The translations under genes and the position numbers were made by a program. Of a stretch of 64,000 bases of DNA, positions 12,201-49,300 are shown piece by piece. Origin of the DNA: Camelus dromedarius (Eukaryota); contig NC_087436.1 of NCBI RefSeq assembly GCF_036321535.1, positions 2,294,001-2,358,000 on the forward strand. Direction: 5' to 3'. Below the pieces are notes generated by a model, which saw only the letters and a list, made by a program, of their open reading frames with translations, did not search any database and had not been told where the DNA came from. The stretch's first letter is position 1. Every line of letters begins with the position of its first letter.

Positions 12201-12676
12201 CCTACCCATATATATGTATGGAGTGGAGTTTGCAACTGAAAAGAAACTTTGTGTTCCCAACAATCTATGTGAAGGACGGCTTTCACACACACTTATCTCT
12301 CAGAACTGAGCATGTGGAGAGACGTTCGTTCATCTAGCACAAAGGGAATGGGTTGCAGGAAAAAATTTTACTCTGGTTTCTCAGTCTGTTTCCTAGTGCC
12401 GGTGTGAAGTTCCTGCATTTTTCACTGTAAAACCGAGTTGGAGCTTGTACCGCCCCTTAAATATGTATGGAGTGGAGTTTGCAACTGAAAAGAAACTTTG
12501 TGTTCCCAACAAACTAGGTGAAGGAGGGCTTTCACACACAATTATCACTCAGGACTGAGCATGTGGAGAGACGTTCGTTCATCTAGCAAAAAGGGAACGG
12601 GTTGCAGTAGAAAATTTGTCTCTGGCTTCTCAGTCTGTTTCCTAGTGCCGGTTTGAAGTTCCTGCAGTTTTCAATG
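1..12676 (+). repeat. Left satellite domain: mosaic of dispersed multi-monomer block copies, no regular HOR
   Basis: Identical or near-identical variant monomers recur at offsets of 995 (285/1280), 3976 (285/4261), 5220 (2281/7501) and 3728 (7501/11229, 7740/11468). Confidence 0.8.
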
Positions 12677-15549
12677 TAAAACCGAGCTGGAACTAGTACC
12701 TCCCCATATATATGTATGGAGGGTAGTTTGCAACTGAAAAGAAACTTTGTGTTCCCAACAAGCTAGGTGAAGGAAGACATTCACACACACTTATTTCTCA
12801 GAAATGAGCATGTGGAGAGACGTTCGTTCATCTATCACAAAGGGAACGGGTTGCAGAAGAAAATTTGTCTCTGGTCTCTCAGTCTGTTTCCTAGTGCCGG
12901 TTTGAAGTTCCTGCAGTTTTCACTGTAAATCCGAGTTGGAGCAATTACCTCCCTATATATATGTATGGAGTGGAGTTTGCAACTGAAAAGAAACTTTGTG
13001 TTCCCAACAAGCTAGGTGAAGGACGGCTTTCACACACACTTATCTCTCAGAACTGAGCATGTGGAGAGAAGTTCGTTCATCTATCACAAAGGGAACGGGT
13101 TGCAGGAGGAACTTTTACTCTGGTTTCTCAGTCTGTTTCCTGTTGCCGGTTTGAAGTTCGTGCAGTTTTCACTGTAAAACCGAGTTGGAGCTAGTACCTC
13201 CCCATATATATGTATGGAGAGGAATTTGCAACTGAAAGGAACTTTGTGTTCCCAAGGAGCTAGGTGAAGGACGGCTTTAACACACACATATCTCTCAGAA
13301 CTGAGCATGTGGAGAGATATTCGTTCAACTAGCACAAAGGGAACGGGTTGCAGGAGAAAATTTTACTCTGGTTTCTCAGTCTGTTTCCTAGTGCAGGTTT
13401 GAAGTTCCTGCAGTTTTCACTGTAAAACCGAGTTGGAGCTTGTACCACCCCTTATATATGTATGGAGTGGAGTTTGTAAGTGAAAAGAAATTTTGTGTTC
13501 CCAACAATCTAGGTGAAGGACGTCTTTCACACACACTTATCTCTCAGAACTTAGCATGTGGAGAGACGTTCGTTCATCTAGCAAAAAGGGAACGGGTTGC
13601 AGGTGAAACTTTACTCTGGTATCTAAGTCTGTTTCCTAGTGCCGGTTTCAATTTCCTGCAGTTTTCACTGTAAAACCGAGTTGGAGCTAGTACCTCCCCA
13701 TATATATGTATGGAGTGGAGTTTGCAACTGAAAAGAAACTTTGAGTTCCCAACAAGCTAGGTGAAGGACGGCTTTCACATACATTTAACTCTCAGAACTG
13801 AGCAAGTGGAGAGACGTTCGTTCATCTAGTACAAATGGAACGGGATGCAGGTGAAACTTTTTCTCTGGTTTCTCAGTCTGTTTCCTGTTGCCGGTTTAAA
13901 GTTCCTGCAGTTTTCACTGTAAAACCGAGTTGGAGCTTGTACCTCCCATATATATGTATGGAGTGGAGTGTGCAACTGAAAGGAACTTTGTGTTCCCAAG
14001 AAGCTAGGTGAAGGACGGCTTTCACACACACTTATCTCTCAGAACTGAGCATGTGGAGAGACGTTCGTACATCTAGCACAAAGGGAACGGGTTGCAGGAG
14101 AAACTTTTACTCTGGTTTCTCAGTCTGTTTCCTAGTGCCGGTTTGAAGTTCCTGCAGTTTTCACTGTAAAACCGAGTTGGAGCTTGTACCTCCCCATATA
14201 TATGTATGGAGTGGAGTTTGCAAGTGAAAAGAAACTTTGTGTTCCCAACAAGCTAGGTGAAGGACGGCTTTCAAACACACCTATCTCTCAGAACTGAGCA
14301 TGTATAGAGACGTTCGTTCATCTAACACAAAAGGAACGGGTTGCAGGAGAAACTTTACTCTGTTTTCTCAGTCATTTCCTAGTGTCAGGTTTTAAGTTCC
14401 TGCAGTTTTCACTGTAAAACCGAGTTGGAGCTAGACCCTCCCCATATATATGTATGGAGTGGAGTTTGCAACTGAAAGGAACTTTGTGTTCCCAAGGAGC
14501 TAGGTGAAGGACGGCTTTAACACACACTTATCTCTCAGAACTGAGCATGTGGAGAGATGTTCGTTCAACTAGCACAAAGGGAACGGGTTGCAGGTGAAAC
14601 TTTTACTCTGGTTTCTCAGTCTGTTTCCTAGTTCCGGTTTGAAGTTCCTGCAGTTTTCACAGTAATACAGATTTGGAGTTTGTACCACCCCTTATATATA
14701 TATGGAGTGGAGTTTGTAAGTGAAAAGAAATTTTGTGTTCCCAACAATCTAGGTGGAGGACGGCTTTCACACACACTTATCTCTCAGAACTTAGCATGTG
14801 GAGAGACGTTCGTTCATCTAGCAAAAAGGGAACGGGTTGCAGGTGAAACTTTACTCTGGTATCTCATTCTGTTTCCTAGTGCCGGTTTCAAGTTCCTGCA
14901 GTTTTCACTGTAAAACCGAGTTGGAGCTAGTACCTCCCCACATATATGTATGGAGTGGAATTTGCAACTGAAAAGAAACTTTGTGTTCCCAACAAGCTAG
15001 GTGAAGGACGGCTTTCAAACACAATTATCTCTCAGAACTGAGCAAGTGGAGAGACTTTCGTTCATCTAGTACAAATGGAACGGGATGCAGGTGAAACTTT
15101 TTCTCTGGTTTCTCAGTGTGTTTCCTGTTGCCGGTTTGAATTTCCTGCATTTTTCACTGTAAAACCGAGTTGGAGCTAGTACCTCCCCATATATATGTAT
15201 GGAGTGGAGTTTCAACTGAAAAGAAACTTTGTTTTTCCAAAAAGCTAGTTGAAGGACTGCTTTCACTCACAATTATCTCTCAGATCTCAGCATGTGGAGA
15301 GACGTTCGTTCATCTAGCACAAAGGGAAAGGGTTGCAGGAGAAACTTTACTCATTTATCTCAGTCAGTATCCTAGTGCCGTTTTGAATTTCCTGGAGTTT
15401 TCACTGTAAAACCGAGTTGGAGCTAGTACCTCCCTATATATATGTATGGATTGGAGTTTGCAACTGAAAAAAAAATTTGTGTTCCCAACAATAAAGGTGA
15501 AGTACGGCATTCACACACAATTATCTCTCAGAACTGAGCATGTGGATAG

Positions 15550-18500
15550 ACGTTCGTTCATCTAGCACAATGGGAACGGGTTGCAGGAGAAACTTTTACT
15601 CTGGTTTCTTAGTCTGTTTCCTAGTTCCGGTTTGAAGTTCCTGCAGTTTTCACTGTAAACCGGAGTTTTAGCTAGGAGCTCCCCATATATATGTATGGAG
15701 TGGAGTTTGCAAGTGAATAGAAACTTTGTGTTCCCAAGAAGCTATGTGAAGGACGGCTTTCACACACACTTATCTCTCAGAACTGAGCATGTGGAGAGAC
15801 GTTCGTTCATCTAACACAAAGGGAACGGGTTGCAGGAGAAACTTTTACTCTGGTTTCTCAGTCTGTTTCCTAGTGCCGGTTTGAAGTTCCTGCAGTTTTC
15901 ACTGTAAAACAGAGTTGGAGCTAGTACCAACCCATATATATGTATGGAGTGGATTTTGCAACTGAAAAGAAACTTTGTGTTCCCAACAAGCTAGGTGAAG
16001 GACGGCTTTCACACAAACTTATCTCTCAGAAATGAGCATGTGGAGAGACATTCGTTCATCTAGCACAAAGGGAACGGGATGCGGTAGAAAATTTGACTCT
16101 GGTTCCTCAGCCTGTTTCCTAGTGCCGGTTTGAAGTTCCTGCAGTTTTCACTGTAAAACCGAGTTGGAGCTATTACCTCCCTATATATATGTATGGAGTG
16201 GATTTTGCAACTGAAAAGAAACTTTGTGTTACAAACAAGCTAGGTGTAGGATGGATTTCACCACACATTTCTCTCAGAACTGAGCATGTGGAGAGATGTT
16301 CGTTTATCTATCACAAAGGGAACGGGTTGCAGGAGAAATTTTACTCTGGTTTCTCAGTCTGTTTCCTAGTGCCGGTGTGAAGTTCCTGCAGTTTTCACTG
16401 TAAAACCGAGTTGGAACTAGGAGCTCCCCATATATATGTATGGAGTGGAGTTTGCAACTGAAAAGAAACTTTGTGTTCCCAAGAAGTTAGGTGAAGGACG
16501 GCTTTCACACACAATTATCTCTCAGAACTGAGCATGTGGAGAGACGTTCGTTCATCTAGCACAAAGGGAAAGGGTTGCAGGAGAAACTTTACCCATTTAT
16601 CTCAGTCTGTTTCCTAGTGCCGGTTTGAAGTTCCTGCAGTTTTCATTGTAAATCCGAGTTGGAGCTATTACCTCCCTATATATATGTATGGAGTGGAGTT
16701 TGAAACTGAAAAGAAACTTTGTGTTCCCAACAAGCTAAGTGAAGGACGGCTTTCACACACACTTATCTCTCAGAACTGAGCATGTGGAGATACGTTCGTT
16801 CATCTAGCACAAAGGGAACGGGTTGCAGGGGAAACTTTTACTCTGGTTTCTCAGTCTGTTTCCTGTTGCCGGTTTGAAGTTCCTGCAGTTTTCACTGTAA
16901 AACCGAGTTGGAGCTAGTACCTCCCCATATATATGTATGGAGTGGAGTGTCAACTGAAAAGAAACTTTGTGTTCCCAAAAAGCTAGGTGAAGAACGGCTT
17001 TCACACACACTTATCTCTCAGAACTGAGCATGAGGTGAGACGTTCGTTCAGCTATCACAAAGGGAACGGGTTACAGGAGAAAATTTTACTCTAGTTTCTC
17101 AGTCGTTTTCCTAGTGCCGGATTGATGTTCCTGCAGTTTTCACAGTAAAACAGAGTTGGGGCTAGTACCTCCCCATATATATGTATGGATTGGATTTTGC
17201 AACTGAAAAGAAACTTTGTGTTCCCAACAAGTTATGTGAAGGACGGCTTTCACACACACTTATCTCTAAGAACTCAGCATGTGGAAAGACGTTCGTTCAT
17301 CTAGCACAAAGGGAAAGGGTTGTAGGAGAAACTTTACTCATTTATCTCAGTCAGTTTCCTAGTGCCGTTTTGAAGTTCCTGCAGTTTTCACTGTAAAATC
17401 GAGTTGGAGCTAGTACCTCCCCATATATATGTATGGAGGGTAGTTTGCAACTGAAAAGAAACTTTGTGTTCCCAACAAGCTAGGTGAAGGAAGACTTTCA
17501 CACACACTTATCTCTCAGAAATGAGCATGTGGAGAGACGTTCGTTCATCTAGCACAATGGGAACGGGTTGCAGGAGAAACTTTTACTCTGGTTTCTTAGT
17601 CTGTTTCCTAGTTCCGGTTTGAAGTTCCTGCAGTTTTCACTGTAAACCGGAGTTTTAGCTAGGAGCTCCCCATATATATGTATGGAGTGGAGTTTGCAAG
17701 TGAATAGAAACTTTGTGTTCCCAAGAAGCTATGTGAAGGACGGCTTTCACACACACTTATCTCTCAGAACTGAGCATGTGGAGAGACGTTCGTTCATCTA
17801 ACACAAAGGGAACGGGTTGCAGGAGAAACTTTTACTCTGGTTTCTCAGTCTGTTTCCTAGTGCCGGTTTGAAGTTCCTGCAGTTTTCACTGTAAAACAGA
17901 GTTGGAGCTAGTACCAACCCATATATATGTATGGAGTGGATTTTGCAACTGAAAAGAAACTTTGTGTTCCCAACAAGCTAGGTGAAGGACGGCTTTCACA
18001 CAAACTTATCTCTCAGAAATGAGCATGTGGAGAGACATTCGTTCATCTAGCACAAAGGGAACGGGATGCGGTAGAAAATTTGACTCTGGTTCCTCAGTCT
18101 GTTTCCTAGTGCCGGTTTGAAGTTCCTGCAGTTTTCACTGTAAAACCGAGTTGGAGCTATTACCTCCCTATATATATGTATGGAGTGGATTTTGCAACTG
18201 AAAAGAAACTTTGTGTTACAAACAAGCTAGGTGTAGGATGGATTTCACCACACATTTCTCTCAGAACTGAGCATGTGGAGAGATGTTCGTTTATCTATCA
18301 CAAAGGGAACGGGTTGCAGGAGAAATTTTACTCTGGTTTCTCAGTCTGTTTCCTAGTGCCGGTGTGAAGTTCCTGCAGTTTTCACTGTAAAACCGAGTTG
18401 GAACTAGGAGCTCCCCATATATATGTATGGAGTGGAGTTTGCAACTGAAAAGAAACTTTATGTTCCCAAGAAGTTAGGTGAAGGACGGCTTTCACACACA

Positions 18501-19523
18501 ATTATCTCTCAGAACTGAGCATGTGGAGAGACGTTCGCTCATCTAGCACAAAGGGAAAGGGTTGCAGGAGAAACTTTACCCATTTATCTCAGTCTGTTTC
18601 CTAGTGCCGGTTTGAAGTTCCTGCAGTTTTCATTGTAAATCCGAGTTGGAGCTATTACCTCCCTATATATATGTATGGAGTGGAGTTTGAAACTGAAAAG
18701 AAACTTTGTGTTCCCAACAAGCTAAGTGAAGGACGGCTTTCACACACACTTATCTCTCAGAACTGAGCATGTGGAGATACTTTCGTTCATCTAGCTCAAA
18801 GGGAACGGGTTGCAGGGGAAACTTTTACTCTGGTTTCTTAGTCTGTTTCCTGTTGCCGGTTTGAAGTTCCTGCAGTTTTCACTGTAAAACCGACTTGGAG
18901 CTAGTACCTCCCCTTATATATGTATGGAGTGGAGTGTCAACTGAAAAGAAACTTTGTGTTCCCAAAAAGCTAGGTGAAGAACGGCTTTCACACACACTTA
19001 TCTCTCAGAACTGAGCATGAGGTGAGACGTTCGTTCAGCTATCACAAAGGGAACGGGTTACAGGAGAAAATTTTACTCTAGTTTCTCAGTCGTTTTCCTA
19101 GTGCCGGATTGATGTTCCTGCAGTTTTCACAGTAAAACAGAGTTGGGGCTAGTACCTCCCCATATATATGTATGGATTGGATTTTGCAACTGAAAAGAAA
19201 CTTTGTGTTCCCAACAAGTTATGTGAAGGACGGCTTTCACACACACTTATCTCTCAGAACTCAGCATGTGGAAAGACGTTCGTTCATCTAGCACAAAGGG
19301 AAAGGGTTGTAGGAGAAACTTTACTCATTTATCTCAGTCAGTTTCCTAGTGCCGTTTTGAAGTTCCTGCAGTTTTCACTGTAAAATCGAGTTGGAGCTAG
19401 TACCTCCCCATATATATGTATGGAGGGTAGTTTGCAACTGAAAAGAAACTTTGTGTTCCCAACAAGGTAGGTGAAGGAAGACTTTCACACACACTTATCT
19501 CTCAGAAATGAGCATGTGGAGAG
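15550..19523 (+). repeat. Tandem duplication of an 8-monomer block (period 1987 bp)
   Basis: Matching translations at 16189/18176 and 17181/19168. The variant CAATGGG is at 15568 and 17555. Confidence 0.92.
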
Positions 19524-22500
19524 ACGTTCGTTCATCTATCACAAAGGAACGGGTTGCAGAAGAAAATTTGACTCTGGTCTCTCAGTTTGTTTCCAAGTGC
19601 CGGTTTGAAGTTCCTGCAGTTTTCACTGTAAATCCGAGTTGGAGCTATTACCTCCCTATATATATGTATGGAGTGGAGTTTGCAACTGAAAAGAAACTTT
19701 GTGTTCCCAACAAGCTAGTTGAAGGACGGCTTTCACACACACTTATCTCTCAGAACTGAGCATGTGGAGAGAAGTTCGTTCATCTATCACAAAGGGAACG
19801 GGTTGCAGGAGAAACTTTTACTCTGGTTTCTCAGTCTGTTTCCTGTTGCCGGTTTGAAGTTCGTGCAGTTTTCACTGTAAAACCGAGTTGGAGCTAGTAC
19901 CTCCCCATATATATGTATGGAGAGGAATTTGCAACTGAAAGGAACTTTGTGTTCCCAAGGAGCTAGGTGAAGGACGGCTTTAACACACACATATCTCTCA
20001 GAACTGAGCATGTGGAGAGATATTCGTTCAACTAGCACAAAGGGAACGGGTTGCAGGAGAAACTTTTACTCTGGTTTCTCAGTCTGTTTCCTAGTGCAGG
20101 TTTGAAGTTCCTGCAGTTTTCACTGTAAAACCGAGTTGGAGCTTGTACCACCCCTTATATATGTATGGAGTGGAGTTTGTAAGTGAAAAGAAATTTTGTG
20201 TTCCCAACAATCTAGGTGAAGGACGTCTTTCACACACACTTATCTCTCAGAACTTAGCATGTGGAGAGACGTTCGTTCATCTAGCAAAAAGGGAACGGGT
20301 TGCAGGTGAAACTTTACTCTGGTATCTCAGTCTGTTTCCTAGTGCCGGTTTCAATTTCCTGCAGTTTTCACTGTAAAACCGAGTTGGAGCTAGTACCTCC
20401 CCATATATATGTATGGAGTGGAGTTTGCAACTGAAAAGAAACTTTGAGTTCCCAACAAGCTAGGTGAAGGACGGCTTTCACATACAATTAACTCTCAGAA
20501 CTGAGCAAGTGGAGAGACGTTCGTTCATCTAGTACAAATGGAACGGGATGCAGGTGAAACTTTTTCTCTGGTTTCTCAGTCTGTTTCCTGTTGCCGGTTT
20601 AAAGTTCCTGCAGTTTTCACTGTAAAACCGAGTTGGAGCTTGTACCTCCCATATATATGTATGGAGTGGAGTTTGCAACTGAAAGGAACTTTGTGTTCCC
20701 AAGAAGCTAGGTGAAGGACGGCTTTCACACACACTTATCTCTCAGAACTGAGCATGTGGAGAGACGTTCGTACATCTAGCACAAAGGGAACGGGTTGCAG
20801 GAGAAACTTTTACTCTGGTTTCTCAGTCTGTTTCCTAGTGCCGGTTTGAAGTTCCTGCAGTTTTCACTGTAAAACCGAGTTGGAGCTTGTACCTCCCCAT
20901 ATATATGTATGGAGTGGAGTTTGCAAGTGAAAAGAAACTTTGTGTTCCCAACAAGCTAGGTGAAGGACGGCTTTCAAACACACCTATCTCTCAGAACTGA
21001 GCATGTATAGAGACGTTCATTCATCTAACACAAAAGGAACGGGTTGCAGGAGAAACTTTACTCTGGTTTCTCAGTCATTTCCTAGTGTCAGGTTTTAAGT
21101 TCCTGCAGTTTTCACTGTAAAATCGAGTTGGAGCTAGTACCTCCCCATAAATATGTATGGAGTTTAGTTTGAAATTGAAAAGAAACTTTGTGTTCACAAC
21201 AAGCTAGGTGAAGGACGGCTTTCACACACACTTATCTCTCAGATCTGAGCATGTGGAGAGACTTTCGTTCATCTACCACAAAGGGAACGGGTTGCAGGAG
21301 AAACTTTTTCTCTGGTTTCACAGTCTGTTTCCTGTTGCCGGTTTGAAGATCCTGCAGTTTTCACTGTACAACCGAGTTGGTGCTAGTACCTCCCCATATA
21401 TATGTATGGAGTGGAGTTTCAACTGAAAAGAAACTTTGTGTTCCCAAGAGGCTAGGTGAAGGACGGGTTTCACACACACTTATCTCTCTGAACTGACAAT
21501 GTGTAGAGAGCTTCGTTCATCTAGCACAAAGGGAACGGGTTGCAAGAGAAACTTTTCTCTGTTTTCTCAGTCTGTTTCCTAGTGCCGATTTGAAATTCCT
21601 GCAGTTTTCACTGTAAAACCGAGTTGGATCTAGTAACTCCCCATATAAATGTATGGAGTGGAGTTTGCAACTGAAAAGAAACTTTGTGTTACCAACAAGC
21701 TAGGGGAAGGACGGCTTTCACACACACTTATCTCTCAGAACTGAGCAAGTGGAGAGACGTTCGTTCATCTAGCACAAAGGGAACGGGTTGCAGGAGAAAC
21801 TTTTTCTCTTGTTTCTCAGTCTGTTTCCTGTTGCCGGTTTAAAGTTCCTGCATTTTCACTGTAAAACCTAGTTGGAGATAGTACCTCCCCATATATATGT
21901 ATGGAGTGGAGTTTGCAACTGAAAGGAACTTTGTGTTCCAAAGGAGCTAGGTGAAGGACGGCTTTAACACACACTTATCTCTCAGAACTGAGCATGTGGA
22001 GAGATGTTCGTTCAACTAGCACAAAGGGAACGGGTTGCAGGTGAAACTTTTACTCTGGTTTCTCAGTCTGTTTCCTAGTTCCGGTTTGAAGTTCCTGCAG
22101 TTTTCATAGTAATACAGATTTGGAGCTTGTACCACCCCTTATATATGTATGGAGTGGAGTTTGTAAGTGAAAAGAAATTTTGTGTTCCCAACAATCTAGG
22201 TGAAGGACGGCTTTCACACACACTTATCTCTCAGAACTTAGCATGTGGAGAGACGTTCGTTCATCTAGCAAAAAGGGAACGGGTTGCAGGTGAAACTTTA
22301 CTCTGGTATCTCAGTCTGTTTCCTAGTGCCGGTTTCAAGTTCCTGCAGTTTTCACTGTAAAACCGAGTTGGAGCTAGTACCTCCCCACATATTTGTATGG
22401 AGTGGAATTTGCAACTGAAAAGAAACTTTGTGTTCCCAACAAGCTAGGTGAAGGACGGCTTTCAAACACAATTATCTCTCAGAACTGAGCCAGTGGAGAG

Positions 22501-25500
22501 ACTTTCGTTCATCTAGTACAAATGGAACGGGATGCAGGTGAAACTTTTTCTCTGGTTTCTCAGTCTGTTTCCTGTTGCCGGTTTAAAGTTCCTGTAGTTT
22601 TCACTGTAAAACCGAGTTGGAGCTAGTACCTCCCCATATATATGTATGGAGTGGAGTTTGCAACTGAAAGGAACTTTGTGTTCCCAAGGAGCTAAGTGAA
22701 GGACGGCATTAACACACACTTATCTCTCAGAACTGAGCATGTGGAGAGATGTTCGTTCAACTAGCACAAAGGGAACGGGTTGCAGGGGAAATTTTACTCT
22801 GGTTTCTCAGTCTGTTTCCTGTTGCCGGTTTGAATTTCCTGCATTTTTCACTGTAAAACCGAGTTGGAGCTAGTACCTCCCCATATATATGTATGGAGTG
22901 GAGTTTCAACTGAAAAGAAACTTTGTTTTTCCAAAAAGCTAGTTGAAGGACTGCTTTCACTCACAATTATCTCTCAGATCTCAGCATGTGGAGAGACGTT
23001 CGTTCATCTAGCACAAAGGGAAAGGGTTGCAGGAGAAACTTTACTCATTTATCTCAGTCAGTATCCTAGTGCCGTTTTGAATTTCCTGGAGTTTTCACTG
23101 TAAAACCGAGTTGGAGCTAGTACCTCCCTATATATATGTATGGAGTGGAGTTTGCAACTGAAAAAAAACTTTGTGTTCCCAACAATAAAGGTGAAGGACG
23201 GCTTTCACACACACTTATCTCTCAGAACTGAGCATGTGGAGAGACTTTCGTTCATCTAGCACAAATGGAACGGGTTGCAGGAGAAAATTTTACTCTGGTT
23301 TCTCAGTCTGTTTCCTAGTGCCGGTATTAATTTCCTGCAATTTTCACTGTAAAACAGAGTTGGGGCTAGTACCTCCCCATATATATGTATGGAGTGGAGT
23401 TTGCAACTGAAAAGAAACTTTGTGTTCCCAACAAGCTAGGTGAAGGACGGCTTTCACACACACTTATTTCTGAGAACTGAGCATGTGGAGAGACGTTCGT
23501 TCATCTAACACAAAGGGAACGGGTTGCAGGAGAAACTTTTACTCTGGTTTCTCAGTCTGTTTCCTAGTGCCGGTTTGAAGTTCCTGCAGTTTTCACTGTA
23601 AAACAGAGTTGGAGCTAGTACCAACCCATATATATGTATGGAGTGGATTTTGCAACTGAAAAGAAACTTTGTGTTCCCAACAAGCTAGGTGAAGGACGGC
23701 TTTCACACACACTTATCTCTCAGAAATGAGCATGTGGAGAGACATTCGTTCATCTAGCACAAAGGGAACGGGATGCTGTAGAAAATTTGACTCTGGTTCC
23801 TCAGTCTGTTTCCTAGTGCCGGTTTGAAGTTCCTGCAGTTTTCACTGTAAAACCGAGTTGGAGCTAGTACCTCCCTATATATATGTATGGAGTGGATTTT
23901 GCAACTGAAAAGAAACTTTGTGTTACAAACAAGCTAGGTGTAGGATGGATTTCACCACACATTTCTCTCAGAACTGAGCATGTGGAGAGATTTTCGTTTA
24001 TCTATCACAAAGGGAACGGGTTGCAGGAGAAATTTTACTCTGGTTTCTCAGTCTGTTTCCTAGTGCCGGTGTGAAGTTCCTGCAGTTTTCACTGTAAAAC
24101 CGAGTTGGAACTAGGAGCTCCCCATATATATGTATGGAGTGGAGTTTGCAACTGAAAAGAAACTTTGTGTTCCCAAGAAGTTAGGTGAAGGACGGCTTTC
24201 ACACACAATTATCTCTCAGAACTGAGCATGTGGAGAGACGTTCGTTCATCTAGCACAAAGGGAAAGGGTTGCAGGAGAAACTTTACCCATTTATCTCAGT
24301 CTGTTTCCTAGTGCCGGTTTGAAGTTCCTGCAGTTTTCATTGTAAATCCGAGTTGGAGCTATTACCTCCCTATATATATGTATGGAGTGGAGTTTGAAAC
24401 TGAAAAGAAACTTTGTGTTCCCAACAAGCTAAGTGAAGGACGGCTTTCACACACACTTATCTCTCAGAACTGAGCATGTGGAGATACGTTCGTTCATCTA
24501 GCACAAAGGGAACGGGTTGCAGGGGAAACTTTTACTCTGGTTTCTCAGTCTGTTTCCTGTTGCCGGTTTGAAGTTCCTGCAGTTTTCACTGTAAAACCGA
24601 GTTGGAGCTAGTACCTCCCCATATATATGTATGGAGTGGAGTGTCAACTGAAAAGAAACTTTGTGTTCCCAAAAAGCTAGGTGAAGAACGGCTTTCACAC
24701 ACACTTATCTCTCAGAACTGAGCATGAGGTGAGACGTTCGTTCAGCTATCACAAAGGGAACGGGTTACAGGAGAAAATTTTACTCTAGTTTCTCAGTCGT
24801 TTTCCTAGTGCCGGATTGATGTTCCTGCAGTTTTCACAGTAAAACAGAGTTGGGGCTAGTACCTCCCCATATATATGTATGGATTGGATTTTGCAACTGA
24901 AAAGAAACTTTGTGTTCCCAACAAGTTATGTGAAGGACGGCTTTCACACACACTTATCTCTCAGAACTCAGCATGTGGAAAGACGTTCGTTCATCTAGCA
25001 CAAAGGGAAAGGGTTGTAGGAGAAACTTTACTCATTTATCTCAGTCAGTTTCCTAGTGCCGTTTTGAAGTTCCTGCAGTTTTCACTGTAAAATCGAGTTG
25101 GAGCTAGTACCTCCCCATATATATGTATGGAGGGTAGTTTGCAACTGAAAAGAAACTTTGTGTTCCCAACAAGCTAGGTGAAGGAAGACTTTCACACACA
25201 CTTCTCTCTCCGAAATGAGCATGTGGAGAGACGTTCGTTCATCTATCACAAAGGGAACGGGTTGCAGAAGAAAATTTGACTCTGGTCTCTCAGTTTGTTT
25301 CCTAGTGCCGGTTTGAAGTTCCTGCAGTTTTCACTGTAAATCCGAGTTGGAGCTATTACCTCCCTATATATATGTATGGAGTGGAGTTTGCAACTGAAAG
25401 AAACTTTGTGTTCCCAACAAGCTAGGTGAAGGACGGCTTTCACACACACTTATCTCTCAGAACTGAGCATGTGGAGAGAAGTTCGTTCATCTATCACAAA

Positions 25501-27136
25501 GGGAACGGGTTGCAGGAGAAACTTTTACTCTGGTTTCTCAGTCTGTTTCCTGTTGCCGGTTTGAAGTTCGTGCAGTTTTCACTGTAAAACCGAGTTGGAG
25601 CTAGTACCTCCCCATATATATGTATGGAGAGGAATTTGCAACTGAAAGGAACTTTGTGTTCCCAAGGAGCTAGGTGAAGGACGGCTTTAACACACACATA
25701 TCTCTCAGAACTGAGCATGTGGAGAGATATTCGTTCAACTAGCACAAAGGGAACGGGTTGCAGGAGAAAATTTTACTCTGGTTTCTCAGTCTGTTTCCTA
25801 GTGCAGGTTTGAAGTTCCTGCAGTTTTCACTGTAAAACCGAGTTGGAGCTTGTACCACCCCTTATATATGTATGGAGTGGAGTTTGTAAGTGAAAAGAAA
25901 TTTTGTGTTCCCAACAATCTAGGTGAAGGACGTCTTTCACACACACTTATCTCTCAGAACTTAGCATGTGGAGAGACGTTCGTTCATCTAGCAAAAAGGG
26001 AACGGGTTGCAGGTGAAACTTTACTCTGGTATCTAAGTCTGTTTCCTAGTGCCGGTTTCAATTTCCTGCAGTTTTCACTGTAAAACCGAGTTGGAGCTAG
26101 TACCTCCCCATATATATGTATGGAGTGGAGTTTGCAACTGAAAAGAAACTTTGAGTTCCCAACAAGCTAGGTGAAGGACGGCTTTCACATACATTTAACT
26201 CTCAGAACTGAGCAAGTGGAGAGACGTTCGTTCATCTAGTACAAATGGAACGGGATGCAGGTGAAACTTTTTCTCTGGTTTCTCAGTCTGTTTCCTGTTG
26301 CCGGTTTAAAGTTCCTGCAGTTTTCACTGTAAAACCGAGTTGGAGCTTGTACCTCCCATATATATGTATGGAGTGGAGTTTGCAACTGAAAGGAACTTTG
26401 TGTTCCCAAGAAGCTAGGTGAAGGACGGCTTTCACACACACTTATCTCTCAGAACTGAGCATGTGGAGAGACGTTCGTACATCTAGCACAAAGGGAACGG
26501 GTTGCAGGAGAAACTTTTACTCTGGTTTCTCAGTCTGTTTCCTAGTGCCGGTTTGAAGTTCCTGCAGTTTTCACTGTAAAACCGAGTTGGAGCTTGTACC
26601 TCCCCATATATATGTATGGAGTGGAGTTTGCAAGTGAAAAGAAACTTTGTGTTCCCAACAAGCTAGGTGAAGGACGGCTTTCAAACACACCTATCTCTCA
26701 GAACTGAGCATGTATAGAGACGTTCGTTCATCTAACACAAAAGGAACGGGTTGCAGGAGAAACTTTACTCTGGTTTCTCAGTCATTTCCTAGTGTCAGGT
26801 TTTAAGTTCCTGCAGTTTTCACTGTAAAATCGAGTTGGAGCTAGTACCTCCCCATATATATGTATGGAGTTTAGTTTGAAATTGAAAAGAAACTTTGTGT
26901 TCACAACAAGCTAGGTGAAGGACGGCTTTCACACACACTTATCTCTCAGATCTGAGCATGTGGAGAGACTTTCGTTCATCTACCACAAAGGGAACGGGTT
27001 GCAGGAGAAACTTTTTCTCTGGTTTCACAGTCTGTTTCCTGTTGCCGGTTTGAAGATCCTGCAGTTTTCACTGTACAACCGAGTTGGTGCTAGTACCTCC
27101 CCATATATATGTATGGAGTGGAGTTTCAACTGAGAA

Positions 27137-29617
27137 GAAACTTTGTGTTCCCAAGAGGCTAGGTGAAGGACGGGTTTCACACACACTTATCTCTCTGAAC
27201 TGACAATGTGTAGAGAGCTTCGTTCATCTAGCACAAAGGGAACGGGATGCAAGAGAAACTTTTCTCTGCTTTCTCAGTCTGTTTCCTAGTGCCGATTTGA
27301 AATTCCTGCAGTTTTCACTGTAAAACCGAGTTGGATCTAGTAACTCCCCATATAAATGTATGGAGTGGAGTTTGCAACTGAAAAGAAACTTTGTGTTACC
27401 AACAAGCTAGGGGAAGGACGGCTTTCACACACACTTATCTCTCAGAACTGAGCAAGTGGAGAGACGTTCGTTCATCTAGCACAAAGGGAACGGGTTGCAG
27501 GAGAAACTTTTTCTCTTGTTTCTCAGTCTGTTTCCTGTTGCCGGTTTAAAGTTCCTGCATTTTCACTGTAAAACCTAGTTGGAGCTAGTACCTCCCCATA
27601 TATATGTATGGAGTGGAGTTTGCAACTGAAAGGAACTTTGTGTTCCCAAGGAGCTAGGTGAAGGACGGCTTTAACACACACTTATCTCTCAGAACTGAGC
27701 ATGTGGAGAGATGTTCGTTCAACTAGCACAAAGGGAACGGGTTGCAGGTGAAACTTTTACTCTGGTTTCTCAGTCTGTTTCCTAGTTCCGGTTTGAAGTT
27801 CCTGCAGTTTTCACAGTAATACAGATTTGGAGTTTGTACCACCCCTTATATATGTATGGAGTGGAGTTTGTAAGTGAAAAGAAATTTTGTGTTCCCAACA
27901 ATCTAGGTGAAGGACGGCTTTCACACACACTTATCTCTCAGAACTTAGCATGTGGAGAGACGTTCGTTCATCTAGCAAAAAGGGAACGGGTTGCAGGTGA
28001 AACTTTACTCTGGTATCTCAGTCTGTTTCCTAGTGCCGGTTTCAAGTTCCTGCAGTTTTCACTGTAAAACCGAGTTGGAGCTAGTACCTCCCCACATATA
28101 TGTATGGAGTGGAATTTGCAACTGAAAAGAAACTTTGTGTTCCCAACAAGCTAGGTGAAGGACGGCTTTCAAACACAATTATCTCTCAGAACTGAGCAAG
28201 TGGAGAGACTTTCGTTCATCTAGTACAAATGGAACGGGATGCAGGTGAAACTTTTTCTCTGGTTTCTCAGTCTGTTTCCTGTTGCCGGTTTAAAGTTCCT
28301 GTAGTTTTCACTGTAAAACCGAGTTGGAGCTAGTACCTCCCCATATATATGTATGGAGTGGAGTTTGCAACTGAAAGAAACTTTGTGTTCCCAAGAGGCT
28401 AGGTGAAGGACGGGTTTCACACACACTTATCTCTCTGAACTGACAATGTGTAGAGAGCTTCGTTCATCTAGCACAAAGGGAACGGGTTGCAAGAGAAACT
28501 TTTCTCTGTTTTCTCAGTCTGTTTCCTAGTGCCGATTTGAAATTCCTGCAGTTTTCACTGTAAAACCGAGTTGGATCTAGTAACTCCCCATATAAATGTA
28601 TGGAGTGGAGTTTGCAACTGAAAAGAAACTTTGTGTTACCAACAAGCTAGGGGAAGGACGGCTTTCACACACACTTATCTCTCAGAACTGAGCAAGTGGA
28701 GAGACGTTCGTTCATCTAGCACAAAGGGAACGGGTTGCAGGAGAAACTTTTTCTCTTGTTTCTCAGTCTGTTTCCAGTTGCCGGTTTAAAGTTCCTGCAT
28801 TTTCACTGTAAAACCTAGTTGGAGCTAGTACCTCCCCATATATATGTATGGAGTGGAGTTTGCAACTGAAAGGAACTTTGTGTTCCCAAGGAGCTAGGTG
28901 AAGGACGGCTTTAACACACACTTATCTCTCAGAACTGAGCATGTGGAGAGATGTTCGTTCAACTAGCACAAAGGGAACGGGTTGCAGGTGAAACTTTTAC
29001 TCTGGTTTCTCAGTCTGTTTCCTAGTTCCGGTTTGAAGTTCCTGCAGTTTTCACAGTAATACAGATTTGGAGTTTGTACCACCCCTTATATATGTATGGA
29101 GTGGAGTTTGTAAGTGAAAAGAAATTTTGTGTTCCCAACAATCTAGGTGAAGGACGGCTTTCACACACACTTATCTCTCAGAACTTAGCATGTGGAGAGA
29201 CGTTCGTTCATCTAGCAAAAAGGGAACGGGTTGCAGGTGAAACTTTACTCTGGTATCTCAGTCTGTTTCCTAGTGCCGGTTTCAAGTTCCTGCAGTTTTC
29301 ACTGTAAAACCGAGTTGGAGCTAGTACCTCCCCACATATATTTATGGAGTGGAATTTGCAACTGAAAAGAAACTTTGTGTTCCCAACAAGCTAGGTGAAG
29401 GACAGCTTTCAAACACAATTATCTCTCAGAACTGAGCAAGTGGAGAGACTTTCGTTCATCTAGTACAAATGGAACGGGATGCAGGTGAAACTTTTTCTCT
29501 GGTTTCTCAGTCTGTTTCCTGTTGCCGGTTTAAAGTTCCTGTAGTTTTCACTGTAAAACCGAGTTGGAGCTAGTACCTCCCCATATATATGTATGGAGTG
29601 GAGTTTGCAACTGAAAG
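27137..29617 (+). repeat. Tandem duplication of a 5-monomer block (period 1240 bp)
   Basis: Identical translations at 27834/29074, and a chimeric junction monomer at ~28377. Confidence 0.92.
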
Positions 29618-32600
29618 GAACTTTGTGTTCCCAAGGAGCTAAGTGAAGGACGGCATTAACACACACTTATCTCTCAGAACTGAGCATGTGGAGAGATGTT
29701 CGTTCAACTAGCACAAAGGGAACGGGTTGCAGGGGAAATTTTACTCTGGTTTCTCAGTCTGTTTCCTGTTGCCGGTTTGAATTTCCTGCATTTTTCACTG
29801 TAAAACCGAGGTGGAGCTAGTACCTCCCCATATATATGTATGGAGTGGAGTTTCAACTGAAAAGAAACTTTGTTTTTCCAAAAAGCTAGTTGAAGGACTG
29901 CTTTCACTCACAATTATCTCTCAGATCTCAGCATGTGGAGAGACGTTCGTTCATCTAGCACAAAGGGAAAGGGTTGCAGGAGAAACTTTACTCATTTATC
30001 TCAGTCAGTATCCTAGTGCCGTTTTGAATTTCCTGGAGTTTTCACTGTAAAACCGAGTTGGAGCTAGTACCTCCCTATATATATGTATGGAGTGGAGTTT
30101 GCAACTGAAAAAAAACTTTGTGTTCCCAACAATAAAGGTGAAGTACGGCATTCACACACAATTATCTCTCAGAACTGAGCATGTGGATAGACGTTCGTTC
30201 ATCTAGCACAATGGGAACGGGTTGCAGGAGAAACTTTTACTCTGGTTTCTTAGTCTGTTTCCTAGTTTCGGTTTGAAGTTCCTGCAGTTTTCACTGTAAA
30301 CCGGAGATTTAGCTAGGAGCTCCCCATATATATGTATGGAGTGGAGTTTGCAAGTGAATAGAAACTTTGTGTTCCCAAGAAGCTATGTGAAGGACGGCTT
30401 TCACACACACTTATCTCTCAGAACTGAGCATGTGGAGAGACTTTCGTTCATCTAGCACAAATGGAACGGGTTGCAGGAGAAAATTTTACTCTGGTTTCTC
30501 AGTCTGTTTCCTAGTGCCGGTATTAATTTCCTGCAATTTTCTCTGTAAAACAGAGTTGGGGCTAGTACCTCCCCATATATATGTATGGAGTGGAGTTTGC
30601 AACTGAAAAGAAACTTTGTGTTCCCAACAAGCTAGGTGAAGGACGGCTTTCACACACACTTATTTCTGAGAACTGAGCATGTGGAGAGACGTTCGTTCAT
30701 CTAACACAAATGGAACGGGTTGCAGGAGAAACTTTTACTCTGGTTTCTCAGTCTGTTTCCTAGTGCCGGTTTGAAGTTCCTGCAGTTTTCATTGTAAATC
30801 CGAGTTGGAGCTATTACCTCCCTATATATATGTATGGAGTGGAGTTTGAAACTGAAAAGAAACTTTGTGTTCCCAACAAGCTAAGTGAAGGACGGCTTTC
30901 ACACACACTTATCTCTCAGAACTGAGCATGTGGAGATACGTTCGTTCATCTAGCACAAAGGGAACGGGTTGCAGGGGAAACTTTTACTCTGGTTTCTCAG
31001 TCTGTTTCCTGTTGCCGGTTTGAAGTTCCTGCAGTTTTCACTTTAAAACCGAGTTGGAGCTAGTACCTCCCCATATATATGTATGGAGTGGAGTGTCAAC
31101 TGAAAAGAAACTTTGTGTTCCCAAAAAGCTAGGTGAAGAACGGCTTTCACACACACTTATCTCTCAGAACTGAGCATGAGGTGAGACGTTCGTTCAGCTA
31201 TCACAAAGGGAACGGGTTACAGGAGAAAATCTTACTCTAGTTTCTCAGTCGTTTTCCTAGTGCCGGATTGATGTTCCTGCAGTTTTCACAGTAAAACAGG
31301 GTTGGGGCTAGTACCTCCCCATATATATGTATGGATTGGATTTTGCAACTGAAAAGAAACTTTGTGTTCCCAACAAGTTATGTGAAGGACGGCTTTCACA
31401 CACACTTATCTCTCAGAACTCAGCATGTGGAAAGACGTTCGTTCATCTAGCACAAAGGGAAAGGGTTGTAGGAGAAACTTTACTCATTTATCTCAGTCAG
31501 TTTCCTAGTGCCGTTTTGAAGTTCCTGCAGTTTTCACTGTAAAATCGAGTTGGAGCTAGTACCTCCCCATATATATGTATGGAGGGTAGTTTGCAACTGA
31601 AAAGAAACTTTGTGTTCCCAACAAGCTAGGTGAAGGAAGACTTTCACACACACTTATATCTCAGAAATGAGCATGTGGAGAGACGTTCGTTCATCTATCA
31701 CAAAGGGAACGGGTTGCAGAAGAAAATTTGACTCTGGTCTCTCAGTTTGTTTCCTAGTGCCGGTTTGAAGTTCCTGCAGTTTTCACTGTAAATCCGAGTT
31801 GGAGCTATTACCTCCCTATATATATGTATGGAGTGGAGTTTGCAACTGAAAAGAAACTTTGTGTTCCCAACAAGCTAGGTGAAGGACGGCTTTCACACAC
31901 ACTTATCTCTCAGAACTGAGCATGTGGAGAGAAGTTCGTTCATCTATCACAAAGGGAACGGGTTGCAGGAGAAACTTTTACTCTGGTTTCTCAGTCTGTT
32001 TCCTGTTGCCGGTTTGAAGTTCGTGCAGTTTTCACTGTAAAACCGAGTTGGAGCTAGTACCTCCCCATATATATGTATGGAGAGGAATTTGCAACTGAAA
32101 GGAACTTTGTGTTCCCAAGGAGCTAGGTGAAGGACGGCTTTAACACACACATATCTCTCAGAACTGAGCATGTGGAGAGATATTCGTTCAACTAGCACAA
32201 AGGGAACGGGTTGCAGGAGAAACTTTTACTCTGGTTTCTCAGTCTGTTTCCTAGTGCAGGTTTGAAGTTCCTGCAGTTTTCACTGTAAAACCGAGTTGGA
32301 GCTTGTACCACCCCTTATATATGTATGGAGTGGAGTTTGTAAGTGAAAAGAAATTTTGTGTTCCCAACAATCTAGGTGAAGGACGTCTTTCACACACACT
32401 TATCTCTCAGAACTTAGCATGTGGAGAGACGTTCGTTCATCTAGCAAAAAGGGAACGGGTTGCAGGTGAAACTTTACTCTGGTATCTCAGTCTGTTTCCT
32501 AGTGCCGGTTTCAATTTCCTGCAGTTTTCACTGTAAAACCGAGTTGGAGCTAGTACCTCCCCATATATATGTATGGAGTGGAGTTTGCAACTGAAAAGAA

Positions 32601-35600
32601 ACTTTGAGTTCCCAACAAGCTAGGTGAAGGACGGCTTTCACATACAATTAACTCTCAGAACTGAGCAAGTGGAGAGACGTTCGTTCATCTAGTACAAATG
32701 GAACGGGATGCAGGTGAAACTTTTTCTCTGGTTTCTCAGTCTGTTTCCTGTTGCCGGTTTAAAGTTCCTGCAGTTTTCACTGTAAAACCGAGTTGGAGCT
32801 TGTACCTCCCATATATATGTATGGAGTGGAGTTTGCAACTGAAAGGAACTTTGTGTTCCCAAGAAGCTAGGTGAAGGACGGCTTTCACACACACTTATCT
32901 CTCAGAACTGAGCATGTGGAGAGACGTTCGTACATCTAGCACAAAGGGAACGGGTTGCAGGAGAAACTTTTACTCTGGTTTCTCAGTCTGTTTCCTAGTG
33001 CCGGTTTGAAGTTCCTGCAGTTTTCACTGTAAAACCGAGTTGGAGCTTGTACCTCCCCATATACATGTATGGAGTGGAATTTGCAAGTGAAAAGAAACTT
33101 TGTGTTCCCAACAAGCTAGGTGAAGGACGGCTTTCAAACACACCTATCTCTCAGAACTGAGCATGTATAGAGACGTTCGTTCATCTAACACAAAAGGAAC
33201 GGGTTGCAGGAGAAAATTTACTCTGGTTTCTCAGTCATTTCCTAGTGTCAGGTTTTAAGTTCCTGCAGTTTTCACTGTAAAATCGAGTTGGAGCTAGTAC
33301 CTCCCCATATATATGTATGGAGTTTAGTTTGAAATTGAAAAGAAACTTTGTGTTCACAACAAGCTAGGTGAAGGACGGCTTTCACACACACTTATCTCTC
33401 AGATCTGAGCATGTGGAGAGACTTTCGTTCATCTACCACAAAGGGAACGGGTTGCAGGAGAAACTTTTTCTCTGGTTTCACAGTCTGTTTCCTGTTGCCG
33501 GTTTGAAGATCCTGCAGTTTTCACTGTACAACCGAGTTGGTGCTAGTACCTCCCCATATATATGTATGGAGTGGAGTTTCAACTGAAAAGAAACTTTGTG
33601 TTCCCAAGAGGCTAGGTGAAGGACGGGTTTCACACACACTTATCTCTCTGAACTGACAATGTGTAGAGAGCTTCGTTCATCTAGCACAAAGGGAACGGGT
33701 TGCAAGAGAAACTTTTCTCTGTTTTCTCAGTCTGTTTCCTAGTGCCGATTTGAAATTCCTGCAGTTTTCACTGTAAAACCGAGTTGGATCTAGTAACTCC
33801 CCATATAAATGTATGGAGTGGAGTTTGCAACTGAAAAGAAACTTTGTGTTACCAACAAGCTAGGGGAAGGACGGCTTTCACACACACTTATCTCTCAGAA
33901 CTGAGCAAGTGGAGAGACGTTCGTTCATCTAGCACAAAGGGAACGGGTTGCAGGAGAAACTTTTTCTCTTGTTTCTCAGTCTGTTTCCTGTTGCCGGTTT
34001 AAAGTTCCTGCATTTTCACTGTAAAACCTAGTTGGAGCTAGTACCTCCCCATATATATGTATGGAGTGGAGTTTGCAACTGAAAGGAACTTTGTGTTCCC
34101 AAGGAGCTAGGTGAAGGACGGCTTTAACACACACTTATCTCTCAGAACTGAGCATGTGGAGAGATGTTCGTTCAACTAGCACAAAGGGAACGGGTTGCAG
34201 GTGAAACTTTTACTCTGGTTTCTCAGTCTGTTTCCTAGTTCCGGTTTGAAGTTCCTGCAGTTTTCACAGTAATACAGATTTGGAGTTTGTACCACCCCTT
34301 ATATATGTATGGAGTGGAGTTTGTAAGTGAAAAGAAATTTTGTGTTCCCAACAATCTAGGTGAAGGACGGCTTTCACACACACTTATCTCTCAGAACTTA
34401 GCATGTGGAGAGACGTTCGTTCATCTAGCAAAAAGGGAACGGGTTGCAGGTGAAACTTTACTCTGGTATCTCAGTCTGTTTCCTAGTGCCGGTTTCAAGT
34501 TCCTGCAGTTTTCACTGTAAAACCGAGTTGGAGCTAGTACCTCCCCACATATATGTATGGAGTGGAATTTGCAACTGAAAAGAAACTTTGTGTTCCCAAC
34601 AAGCTAGGTGAAGGACGGCTTTCAAACACAATTATCTCTCAGAACTGAGCAAGTGGAGAGACTTTCGTTCATCTAGTACAAATGGAACGGGATGCAGGTG
34701 AAACTTTTTCTCTGGTTTCTCAGTCTGTTTCCTGTTGCCGGTTTAAAGTTCCTGTAGTTTTCACTGTAAAACCGAGTTGGAGCTAGTACCTCCCCATATA
34801 TATGTATGGAGTGGAGTTTGCAACTGAAAGGAACTTTGTGTTCCCAAGGAGCTAAGTGAAGGACGGCATTAACACACACTTATCTCTCAGAACTGAGCAT
34901 GTGGAGAGATGTTCGTTCAACTAGCACAAAGGGAACGGGTTGCAGGGGAAATTTTACTCTGGTTTCTCAGTCTGTTTCCTGTTGCTGGTTTGAATTTCCT
35001 GCATTTTTCACTGTAAAACCGAGTTGGAGCTAGTACCTCCCCATATATATGTATGGAGTGGAGTTTCAACTGAAAAGAAACTTTGTTTTTCCAAAAAGCT
35101 AGTTGAAGGACTGCTTTCACTCACAATTATCTCTCAGATCTCAGCATGTGGAGAGACGTTCGTTCATCTAGCACAAAGGGAAAGGGTTGCAGGAGAAACT
35201 TTACTCATTTATCTCAGTCAGTATCCTAGTGCCGTTTTGAATTTCCTGGAGTTTTCACTGTAAAACCGAGTTGGAGCTAGTACCTCCCTATATATATGTA
35301 TGGAGTGGAGTTTGCAACTGTAAAAAAACTTTGTGTTCCCAACAATAAAGGTGAAGTACGGCATTCACACACAATTATCTCTCAGAACTGAGCATGTGGA
35401 TAGACGTTCGTTCATCTAGCACAATGGGAACGGGTTGCAGGAGAAACTTTTACTCTGGTTTCTTAGTCTGTTTCCTAGTTTCGGTTTGAAGTTCCTGCAG
35501 TTTTCACTGTAAACCGGAGATTTAGCTAGGAGCTCCCCATATATATGTATGGAGTGGAGTTTGCAAGTGAATAGAAACTTTGTGTTCCCAAGAAGCTATG

Positions 35601-36660
35601 TGAAGGACGGCTTTCACACACACTTATCTCTCAGAACTGAGCATGTGGAGAGACTTTCGTTCATCTAGCACAAATGGAACGGGTTGCAGGAGAAAATTTT
35701 ACTCTGGTTTCTCAGTCTGTTTCCTAGTGCCGGTATTAATTTCCTGCAATTTTCACTGTAAAACAGAGTTGGGGCTAGTACCTCCCCATATATATGTATG
35801 GAGTGGAGTTTGCAACTGAAAAGAAACTTTGTGTTCCCAACAAGCTAGGTGAAGGACGGCTTTCACACACACTTATTTCTGAGAACTGAGCATGTGGAGA
35901 GACGTTCGTTCATCTAACACAAAGGGAACGGGTTGCAGGAGAAACTTTTACTCTGGTTTCTCAGTCTGTTTCCTAGTGCCGGTTTGAAGTTCCTGCAGTT
36001 TTCACTGTAAAACAGAGTTGGAGCTAGTACCAACCCATATATATGTATGGAGTGGATTTTGCAACTGAAAAGAAACTTTGTGTTCCCAACAAGCTAGGTG
36101 AATGACGGCTTTCACACACACTTATCTCTCAGAAATGAGCATGTGGAGAGACATTCGTTCATCTAGCACAAAGGGAACGGGATGCTGTAGAAAATTTGAC
36201 TCTGGTTCCTCAGTCTGTTTCCTAGTGCCGGTTTGAAGTTCCTGCAGTTTTCACTGTAAAACCGAGTTGGAGCTAGTACCTCCCTATATATATGTATGGA
36301 GTGGATTTTGCAACTGAAAAGAAACTTTGTGTTACAAACAAGCTAGGTGTAGGATGGATTTCACCACACATTTCTCTCAGAACTGAGCATGTGGAGAGAT
36401 TTTCGTTTATCTATCACAAAGGGAACGGGTTGCAGGAGAAATTTTACTCTGGTTTCTCAGTCTGTTTCCTAGTGCCGGTGTGAAGTTCCTGCAGTTTTCA
36501 CTGTAAAACCGAGTTGGAGCTAGGAGCTCCCCATATATATGTATGGAGTGGAGTTTGCAACTGAAAAGAAACTTTGTGTTCCCAAGAAGTTAGGTGAAGG
36601 ACGGCTTTCACACACAATTATCTCTCAGAACTGAGCATGTGGAGAGACGTTCGTTCATCT

Positions 36661-48600: not shown

Positions 48601-49300
48601 TTTTCTCTATTTTCTCAGTCTGTTTCCTAGTGCCGGTTTGAAATTCCTGCAGTTTTCACTGTAAAACCGAGTTGGATCTAGTACCTCCCCATATATATGT
48701 ATGGAGTGGAGTTTGCAACTGAAAAGAAACTTTGTGTTCCCAACAAGCTTGGTGAAGGGCGGCTTTCACACACAATTATCTCTCAGAACTGAGCAAGTGG
48801 AGAGACGTTCGTTCATCTAGCACAAAGGGAACTGTTTGCAGGAGAAACTTTTTCTCTGGTTTCTCAGTGTGTGTCCTGTTGCCGGTTTAAAGTTCCTGCA
48901 GTTTTCACTGTAAAACCGTGTTGGAGCTTGTACCTCCCCAAATAATTTTATGGAGTGGAGTTTGCAAGTGAAAAGAATCTTTGTGTTCCCAAAAAGCTAG
49001 TTGAAGGACGGCTTTCACACACACTTATCTCACAGAACTGAGCATGTGGAGAGACGTTCGTTCATCTAGCACAAAGGGAACGGTTTGCAGGTTAAACTTT
49101 TCTCATTTTTCTCAGTCTGTTTCCTAGTGCCGGTTTGAAGTTCCTGCAGTTTTCACTGTAAAACCGAGTTGGAGCTAGTTCTTCACCATATATATGTATA
49201 GAGTGGAGTTTGCAAGTGAAAAGAAACTTTGTGTTCCCAACAAGCTAGGTGAAGGACGGCTTTCACACACACTTATCTCTCAGAACTGAGCATGTGGAGA
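36661..49300 (+). repeat. More diverged satellite domain with recurring G-H-I variant triplet (8-, 8-, 13- and 16-monomer spacing)
   Basis: The triplet GAGTTTAGTTTGAAATTG / TACAACCG..GGTGC..CTGACAATG / GGATCTAGT recurs near 37.0, 39.0, 41.0, 44.2 and 48.2 kb. ORF offsets are 1985 (37090/39075), 3227 (41329/44556) and 3972 (44556/48528). Confidence 0.75.

Follow-up and report, generated by a model that had tools for sequence, protein, structure and literature searches.

Satellite array and family identity

The window, the whole 64-kb stretch of DNA analysed here, consists of one head-to-tail satellite with a monomer of ~248.5 bp, which runs uninterrupted and in one orientation at 43% GC. A single TRF array with a tandem period of 249 spans it, and no inversion or insertion was found in the window, with 4 16-mers common to the reverse strand. 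When cut into its 257 monomers (246–249 bp each), the array showed 13.7 differences on average between a monomer and the window consensus and a median pairwise distance of 25. The most abundant tandem repeat of llama, a candidate centromere DNA, closely resembles it in length (248 bp vs 246–249 bp) and GC content (45% vs 43%; Melters et al. 2013, PMC4053949, supplementary files 1 and 3), and the window consensus differs from 240 published llama bases at 14 of 241 columns (~94% identity), as counted by eye over all but the last ~8 bases of the published monomer. The matching length, GC content and identity indicate that the window array is the camelid 248-bp major satellite family. A 249-bp dog repeat (GC 51–53%) was also considered as a relative and set aside once the llama sequence matched. 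At 85% likeness to one monomer, 964,894 of 13,215,431 raw reads matched in X22 and 970,467 of 13,177,635 in X23 (7.3% of reads in each), which puts the satellite share of raw DNA at ~7%.

A literature search, with subscription journals outside its reach, found no description of a camelid HOR. For the llama repeat, the table in PMC4053949 gives HOR structure as 'not found', which we attribute to the use of Sanger reads, whose length falls short of a 6-kb unit, and its centromeric location was assumed there from abundance. An alpaca satellite paper (PMC13751797) concerns non-centromeric families with units of 2–8 kb, and its main text mentions neither a 248/249-bp family nor a HOR; the accessible text of a horse and donkey paper (PMC13477059) held nothing relevant.

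A young block built on a 24-monomer master

Within the array, a young block of 23.7 kb comprises about four copies of a 24-monomer master of 5957 bp with monomer types A–X (Table 1). Monomer splitting reproduced the unit starts and lengths given by an earlier sequence-only reading, with complete units of 6703, 5708 and 6452 bp, and unsupervised clustering, the check that this reading had itself proposed, bore out its 24 monomer types. Single linkage at ≤3 differences among the 97 monomers in 12677–36751 yielded 25 multi-member clusters, namely the 24 types and one hybrid occurring twice, together with 7 singletons. The unclustered monomers include four single hybrids or diverged copies within the block and two edge monomers, while a fifth single hybrid, Q/T, groups with the Q cluster. 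Clustering on 5' monomer halves alone gave 24 multi-member clusters and on 3' halves 23. The largest within-type distance was 5, and distances between types had a minimum of 6 and a median of 25 (of 249), compared to 0.33–1.1% between same-position monomers across units; 93 of the 95 monomers within the block have a partner at ≤5 differences. Neighbouring monomer pairs recurred within the block in 85 of 94 cases vs 2–13 in 20 shuffles, so the monomers clearly do not follow one another at random.

A Viterbi path over the 24-type master, partly dependent on the clustering because the pure members were hand-picked from it, contained 8 internal jumps that were unchanged at jump penalties of 2.5, 3.5 and 5, with 75 mismatches over 23,578 bp. 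All eight fall where the sequence-only reading had placed them, and its arithmetic also holds: the units derive from the master by seven in-register events (five deletions of 3, 1, 1, 1 and 3 monomers and two duplications of 8 and 5, the P>Q jump being present twice), with sizes known only modulo 24, such that '+5' could equally be '−19'. The monomer string and its junctions are thus directly established. None of the three complete units in the window has the canonical 24-mer structure, and the master is contiguous only out of phase, as had been claimed. Two details of that reading needed correction. The block is real, but 12677–12925, which had been included in it, is an older copy with 7 differences from type X, so that the block starts at ~12926; and the type letters denote the same types but had skipped Q, so that the former P/R fusion is P/Q and the lost S, T, U are R, S, T.

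Table 1. Positions of the satellite array, the young block, its units and junctions, and related older copies
Feature	Position	Description
Satellite array	1..64000	257 monomers of ~248.5 bp, 43% GC; assigned by sequence likeness to the camelid 248-bp major satellite family
Young block	12926..36655	~4 copies of 24-monomer master, types A-X
Unit 1, 27 monomers	12926..19628	ABCDEF JK L/M NO P/Q RSTUVW X/O P/Q RSTUVWX; outlier lineage
Unit 2, 23 monomers	19629..25336	A-N, O/P, Q-X
Unit 3, 26 monomers	25337..31788	A-L, M/H, I-P, Q/T, U-X; mosaic of two lineages
Unit 4, partial	31789..36655	A-S intact and front of T
Near-complete master, out of phase	30792..36655	end of T, U-X, A-S, front of T
Right edge of young block	36655..36674	T jumps to more diverged E/F-like monomer
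Junction F>I/J	14405..14420	G, H, I lost; 14-bp identity tract
Junction L>M	15102..15138	one monomer lost; 35-bp tract
Junction P>Q	15778..15801 and 17765..17788	one monomer lost; 22-bp tract
Junction X>O	17534..17552	8-monomer duplication; 17-bp tract
Junction O>P	23190..23197	one monomer lost; 6-bp tract
Junction M>H	28367..28378	5-monomer duplication; 10-bp tract
Junction Q>T	30745..30792	R, S, most of T lost; 46-bp tract
Cluster of 7 private substitutions	18460..18914	455 bp of 8-mer duplicate; no single donor monomer in window
Hidden HOR-register switch interval	26194..27576	unit 3: unit-1 alleles B187, C204, D114; unit-2/4 allele J8
Older U-V-W-X copy	5469..6461	2-8 differences
Older N-O-P-Q-R copy	9942..11184	4-8 differences; O, P, Q intact; outgroup for O/P, P/Q, X/O, Q/T hybrids
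Older rearranged F-G-H-I-J-K/L-M/J copy	36752..38488	1-12 differences; outgroup for F/I, L/M, M/H hybrids

Junctions and private variants

The junctions lie in identity tracts of 6–46 bp, with a mean of 21.4 bp compared to 20.3 bp for random placement in the same parent pairs (P = 0.41), which rules out long identity as the junction driver. The parent pairs were average in similarity (25.1 vs 24.3 differences), and the closest pair, C/K, with an identity tract of 130 bp, was unused by any junction. Tracts of chance length between average parents indicate that the rearrangement process tolerates ~10% mismatch, and they show that a long perfect match is not required for exchange between monomers 10% apart.

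Small variants in the block numbered 65, of which 56 were private and 9 shared. The private variants were clustered, with 20 gaps of ≤100 bp vs 11.7 expected (P = 0.003) and up to 7 variants in 500 bp (P = 0.04). Six of the 56 lay within 50 bp of junctions vs 2.3 expected (P = 0.03), but one of these is an ancestral allele and two sit side by side, which leaves ~4 independent changes; the enrichment was absent at 125, 250 and 500 bp, leaving mutation hotspots at junctions unsupported beyond 50 bp and weak at 50 bp. Donor monomers for the private alleles were not above chance in the window (38/54 vs 34.6, P = 0.17).

These data also bear on whether the block is an assembly artefact, with true units uniform and the junctions mere mis-joins. 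The junctions are read from the assembled sequence, and exact runs of up to 1184 bp are common to the copies, but the junction tracts are far below read-overlap length, the P/Q junction occurs twice in copies differing at 10 of 1987 sites, the variants are nested and lineage-consistent across copies, and only 2 of the 56 private variants are indels, although long-read errors are mostly small indels. We therefore regard an artefact as very improbable.

Lineages, order of events and age

For O, P, Q, H, X and L, the diagnostic alleles to either side of the breakpoints are found in older flanking copies, which directly establishes that the hybrid monomers are the derived state and rules out hybrids as the ancestral state for these types; T, whose older copy is without the 247 allele, and M, which no older copy spans whole, rest on their partners. 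Because the P/Q fusion and the alleles R112 and S20 are in both 8-mer copies, they preceded the 8-mer duplication. Pairwise divergence was 0.33–0.57% among units 2, 3 and 4 and 0.55–1.12% between unit 1 and the rest. Units 2, 3 and 4 share the derived alleles J8, O69, O221, P11 and R179 wherever the site is present, while units 1 and 3 share three adjacent derived alleles, B187, C204 and D114, the latter two of which are rare (3 of 257 monomers each). Unit 3 therefore passes from unit-1 alleles to a unit-2/4 allele, a lineage switch that left its length unchanged. The copies thus did not each arise by separate editing of a single master: unit 1 belongs to an outlier lineage, and in unit 3 both lineages are combined as a mosaic.

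The sequence-only reading had proposed in-register structural change in a young HOR, about as frequent as unit duplication. All 7 events keep the monomer register in copies that are 98.9–99.7% identical, and the frequency was, if anything, understated, as about four copies would need 2–3 whole-unit duplications, against seven visible events and one hidden switch. At the mutation rate of 1.1e-8 and generation time of 5 years assumed for camels in PMC7305198, the unit splits are 0.75–2 million years old; they would be ~0.1–0.3 million years old if the satellite mutates 6–10 times faster, as human and Arabidopsis arrays do. The master itself came from earlier rounds, for its pairs C/K, A/U, B/J and D/L differ by only 6–9 and M is an older hybrid. 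The flanks show other local periods (15, 13, 4, 29 and 2). Overall, the array is pieced together from local duplications that range from older to younger, and the 24-mer is the largest of its young patches.

Origin of the rearrangements

We consider it probable that repair with template switching after local amplification explains the block best. A ~6-kb stretch of an already patchwork camelid array would have been tandemly amplified to about four copies, splitting first into two lineages, unit 1 and units 2–4, the second of which was then copied further. During and after this amplification, homology-directed repair or replication restart would repeatedly have paired the wrong monomer. With monomers ~90% alike, a strand could keep the monomer register while missing the HOR register, which would delete 1–3 monomers or duplicate 5–8 and leave every junction with a hybrid monomer; if the strand also hit the HOR register, there would be no length change but a lineage switch only, as in unit 3. 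The retained register, the tolerated 10% mismatch and the clustered variants fit such repair. As to the pathway, we tentatively infer, from one sequence and seven events, break-induced or synthesis-dependent copying with template switches for the gains and single-strand annealing for the losses. In Arabidopsis CEN178 mutation-accumulation lines, 10.1101/2025.06.02.657473 reports that all 56 of 56 large indels keep the period, that gains are longer than losses, and that mosaics and hybrid units are common, and its authors point to homology-directed repair, BIR and SSA.

Classical unequal crossing-over, in which the gains, losses and lineage switch all arose between sister chromatids or homologues offset by entire monomers, without template-switching synthesis, would account equally well for the in-register hybrids and the mosaic unit 3. 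Also in its favour, the two 5-mer copies are as far apart (5 of 1238 sites) as separate units are. Crossover is sensitive to mismatches, and junctions in such short tracts, between monomers 10% apart and avoiding the most similar pairs, are unexpected under this explanation, which also leaves the clustered private variants unexplained; we consider it somewhat unlikely. The sequence-only reading had left the origin between in-register unequal exchange and slippage. Simple intramolecular replication slippage between adjacent monomers agrees with the small steps (1, 1, 1, 3 and 3 lost; 5 and 8 gained) and the short junction identity but cannot carry unit-1 alleles into unit 3, 12.4 kb away, so it cannot explain everything and seems quite improbable.

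Compatibly with any of these explanations, a large canonical 24-mer array might lie elsewhere on the chromosome or its homologue, with the block as its variant-rich edge. Clustered private variants without donors in the window would fit this, as would the finding that 20 runs from 12 studies and four organism labels contain 79–83% of the 31-mers sampled from monomers A–D. In a family this abundant, however, shared 31-mers are to be expected whichever monomer is sampled, and both flanks hold only older rearranged pieces with the local periods 15, 13, 4 and 29, which makes such an edge unlikely in our view.

Comparison with human and plant HORs

The block resembles the human alpha-satellite HOR-StVs described in PMC13684623 in having diverged monomers inside near-identical units and variants in monomer order. 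In those human arrays the canonical HOR is commonest and indels often remove whole HORs, whereas the camelid block has no canonical unit in three and only about four copies. Its monomer also differs in length from that of alphoid DNA (171 bp), and a search of both strands of the window for the CENP-B box, using the core motif, gave 0 matches at 0 or 1 mismatch. With no canonical unit, ~4 copies and no CENP-B box in the window, the camelid block counts as a local HOR of low copy number and not as a canonical array of the human type.

Low-copy local HORs are, according to PMC13011684, the rule in maize CentC and Arabidopsis, where they mostly have 3–5 monomers, compared to 24 in the camelid block. 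With Arabidopsis CEN178 and maize CentC the block has in common local low-copy patterns, whole-monomer indels, hybrid units, gains larger than losses, mosaic duplications and clustered point changes, although nearby donors for these changes were not above chance in the camelid. The ratio of small variants to rearrangements in the block (65:7, ~9:1) did not differ significantly (P = 0.32) from the average of ~6 SNVs per SV given for human active alpha satellite in PMC13684623, and the rearrangement share (7/72) was lower (P = 0.02) than in Arabidopsis, where 10.1101/2025.06.02.657473 gives 208 small variants to 56 large indels (3.7:1). The structural-change rate is therefore ordinary for centromeric satellites, and the block structure is known satellite behaviour that works like the human and plant systems. 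The block offers a clean small example of this turnover in a mammalian family for which we found no HOR description, and what is new in it are the chance-length junction tracts, the hidden lineage switch in unit 3 and the clustered private variants.

Substitution spectrum

The substitution spectrum matters more than the block structure. The young block contained 19 transitions and 44 transversions, a Ti/Tv of 0.43 that departs from 2.1 (P = 2e-9) and is compatible with 0.5. Type-defining alleles gave 82/214, or 51/116 if each column and allele was counted once, and are not errors, since each is present in 3–5 identical copies; close monomer pairs outside the block gave 27/41 (0.66). No CpG excess was observed among the changes (3/12 vs 39/100). 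Genome-wide, camel SNPs have a Ts/Tv of 2.54 in PMC7305198, obtained by SNP calling, from which ascertainment in a satellite differs. Window singletons, with a flat spectrum, were left out because they are conditioned on rarity.

Raw reads were assessed on one monomer, taking places and alleles at ≥2% share; these counts, which have no bearing on the junctions, are of places, not mutation events, and five of them return the chosen monomer to the consensus state. Ti/Tv was 55/117 (0.47) in X22, 49/110 (0.45) in X23 and 72/173 (0.42) in X21, three sets that represent one organism label and two studies, and 36/143 (0.25) in the X1 contigs. C>A/G>T made up 34–39% of the read spectrum, T>A/A>T 25–30% and T>C 4–7%, and 84–87% of changes were to A or T. 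Library oxidation as the source of G>T was ruled out for X22, in which the allele at 35849 had shares of 13.6% and 13.5% by mate direction. X21 showed a small mate asymmetry at 35844 (7.0% vs 5.6%). Taken together, these data leave us highly confident that the low Ti/Tv of the camelid satellite is well supported.

The Ti/Tv of the block (0.43) compares with 0.55 reported for human active alpha satellite in a 2026 preprint (PMC13684623), which offers no clear cause and raises the question of whether the pattern extends to other satellites. The camelid result extends this unexplained human observation to another mammalian order; a literature search combining all of these terms returned only this preprint, and the pattern may already be noted in older satellite literature. 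That a camelid satellite without CENP-B boxes has read-set values of 0.42–0.47 suggests a shared mutational process, for which a cross-species test would be cheap. We tentatively propose that a transversion-rich spectrum is a general property of mammalian centromeric satellites rather than a primate or CENP-B-box peculiarity, coupled to repair synthesis. In the camelid satellite the spectrum consists mainly of substitutions to A or T (79–87% of common variants), among which C>A/G>T and T>A/A>T are the leading classes, and CpG bases show no excess. Such a pattern would arise if A were inserted opposite abasic or oxidised purines during the recombination-coupled synthesis behind the in-register rearrangements; alternatively, the low Ti/Tv could result from selective repair of transition mismatches in heteroduplex DNA. 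Arabidopsis centromeres differ in their changes, with GC>AT transitions at ~40%, whereas C>A and T>A lead in the camelid. T>C/T>G accounted for 17 of 54 of the youngest private variants compared to 21 of 167 type-defining alleles (P = 0.003), so that the A/T skew belongs in part to the older variants, and sorting may contribute to it besides mutation.

Shared ancestry of the 24-monomer master and the right flank

An adjacent pair of G-like and H-like monomers was found repeatedly across 37000-62800, with divergence rising from 1 to 15 differences, and since these pairs recur out to 62.8 kb, the 24-monomer master (types A-X) and a large part of the right flank have a common ancestry. The master itself retained internal remnants of older duplications (B-D vs J-L and A vs U, at spacings of 8 and 4 monomers, with 6-9 differences). 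Duplications were also observed elsewhere in the window, including a second young block near its right end, within which 5-mer and 2-mer repeats were nested. The lone near-identical monomer pairs were surrounded by diverged monomers, and may represent either whole-monomer conversion or composite duplication.

Local duplications in the window (lag, spacing in monomers; differences per monomer pair)
Feature	Positions	Lag	Pairs and differences
Second young block, 13-monomer duplication	56610-62557		12 consecutive pairs, mean 0.7
Matches	54626-56360 vs 61814-63548	29	
Duplication	7208-8450 vs 10936-12178	15	5 consecutive pairs, mean 3.6
Tandem duplication of 4 monomers	50898-52885		0-2 in three pairs
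Lone monomer pairs	1-248 vs 3977-4225; 1245-1493 vs 4226-4474	16 and 12	identical or 1 difference

Subfamily alleles and substitution spectrum

In the raw-read runs X22 and X23, compared with the monomer at 35759-36007, alleles at 25-35% share were detected at positions 35803, 35893, 35921, 35943, 35950 and 35956, which point to a major subfamily of the ~248.5-bp satellite elsewhere in the genome. Across the window (1-64000) and the raw reads on this monomer, the substitution spectrum was rich in transversions (Ti/Tv 0.36-0.47), with C>A and T>A being the commonest classes and no CpG excess among substitutions. Within 12926-36503, the T>C/T>G share was higher in the youngest private variants, those specific to single copies (17/54), than in the alleles defining the monomer types (21/167, P = 0.003).
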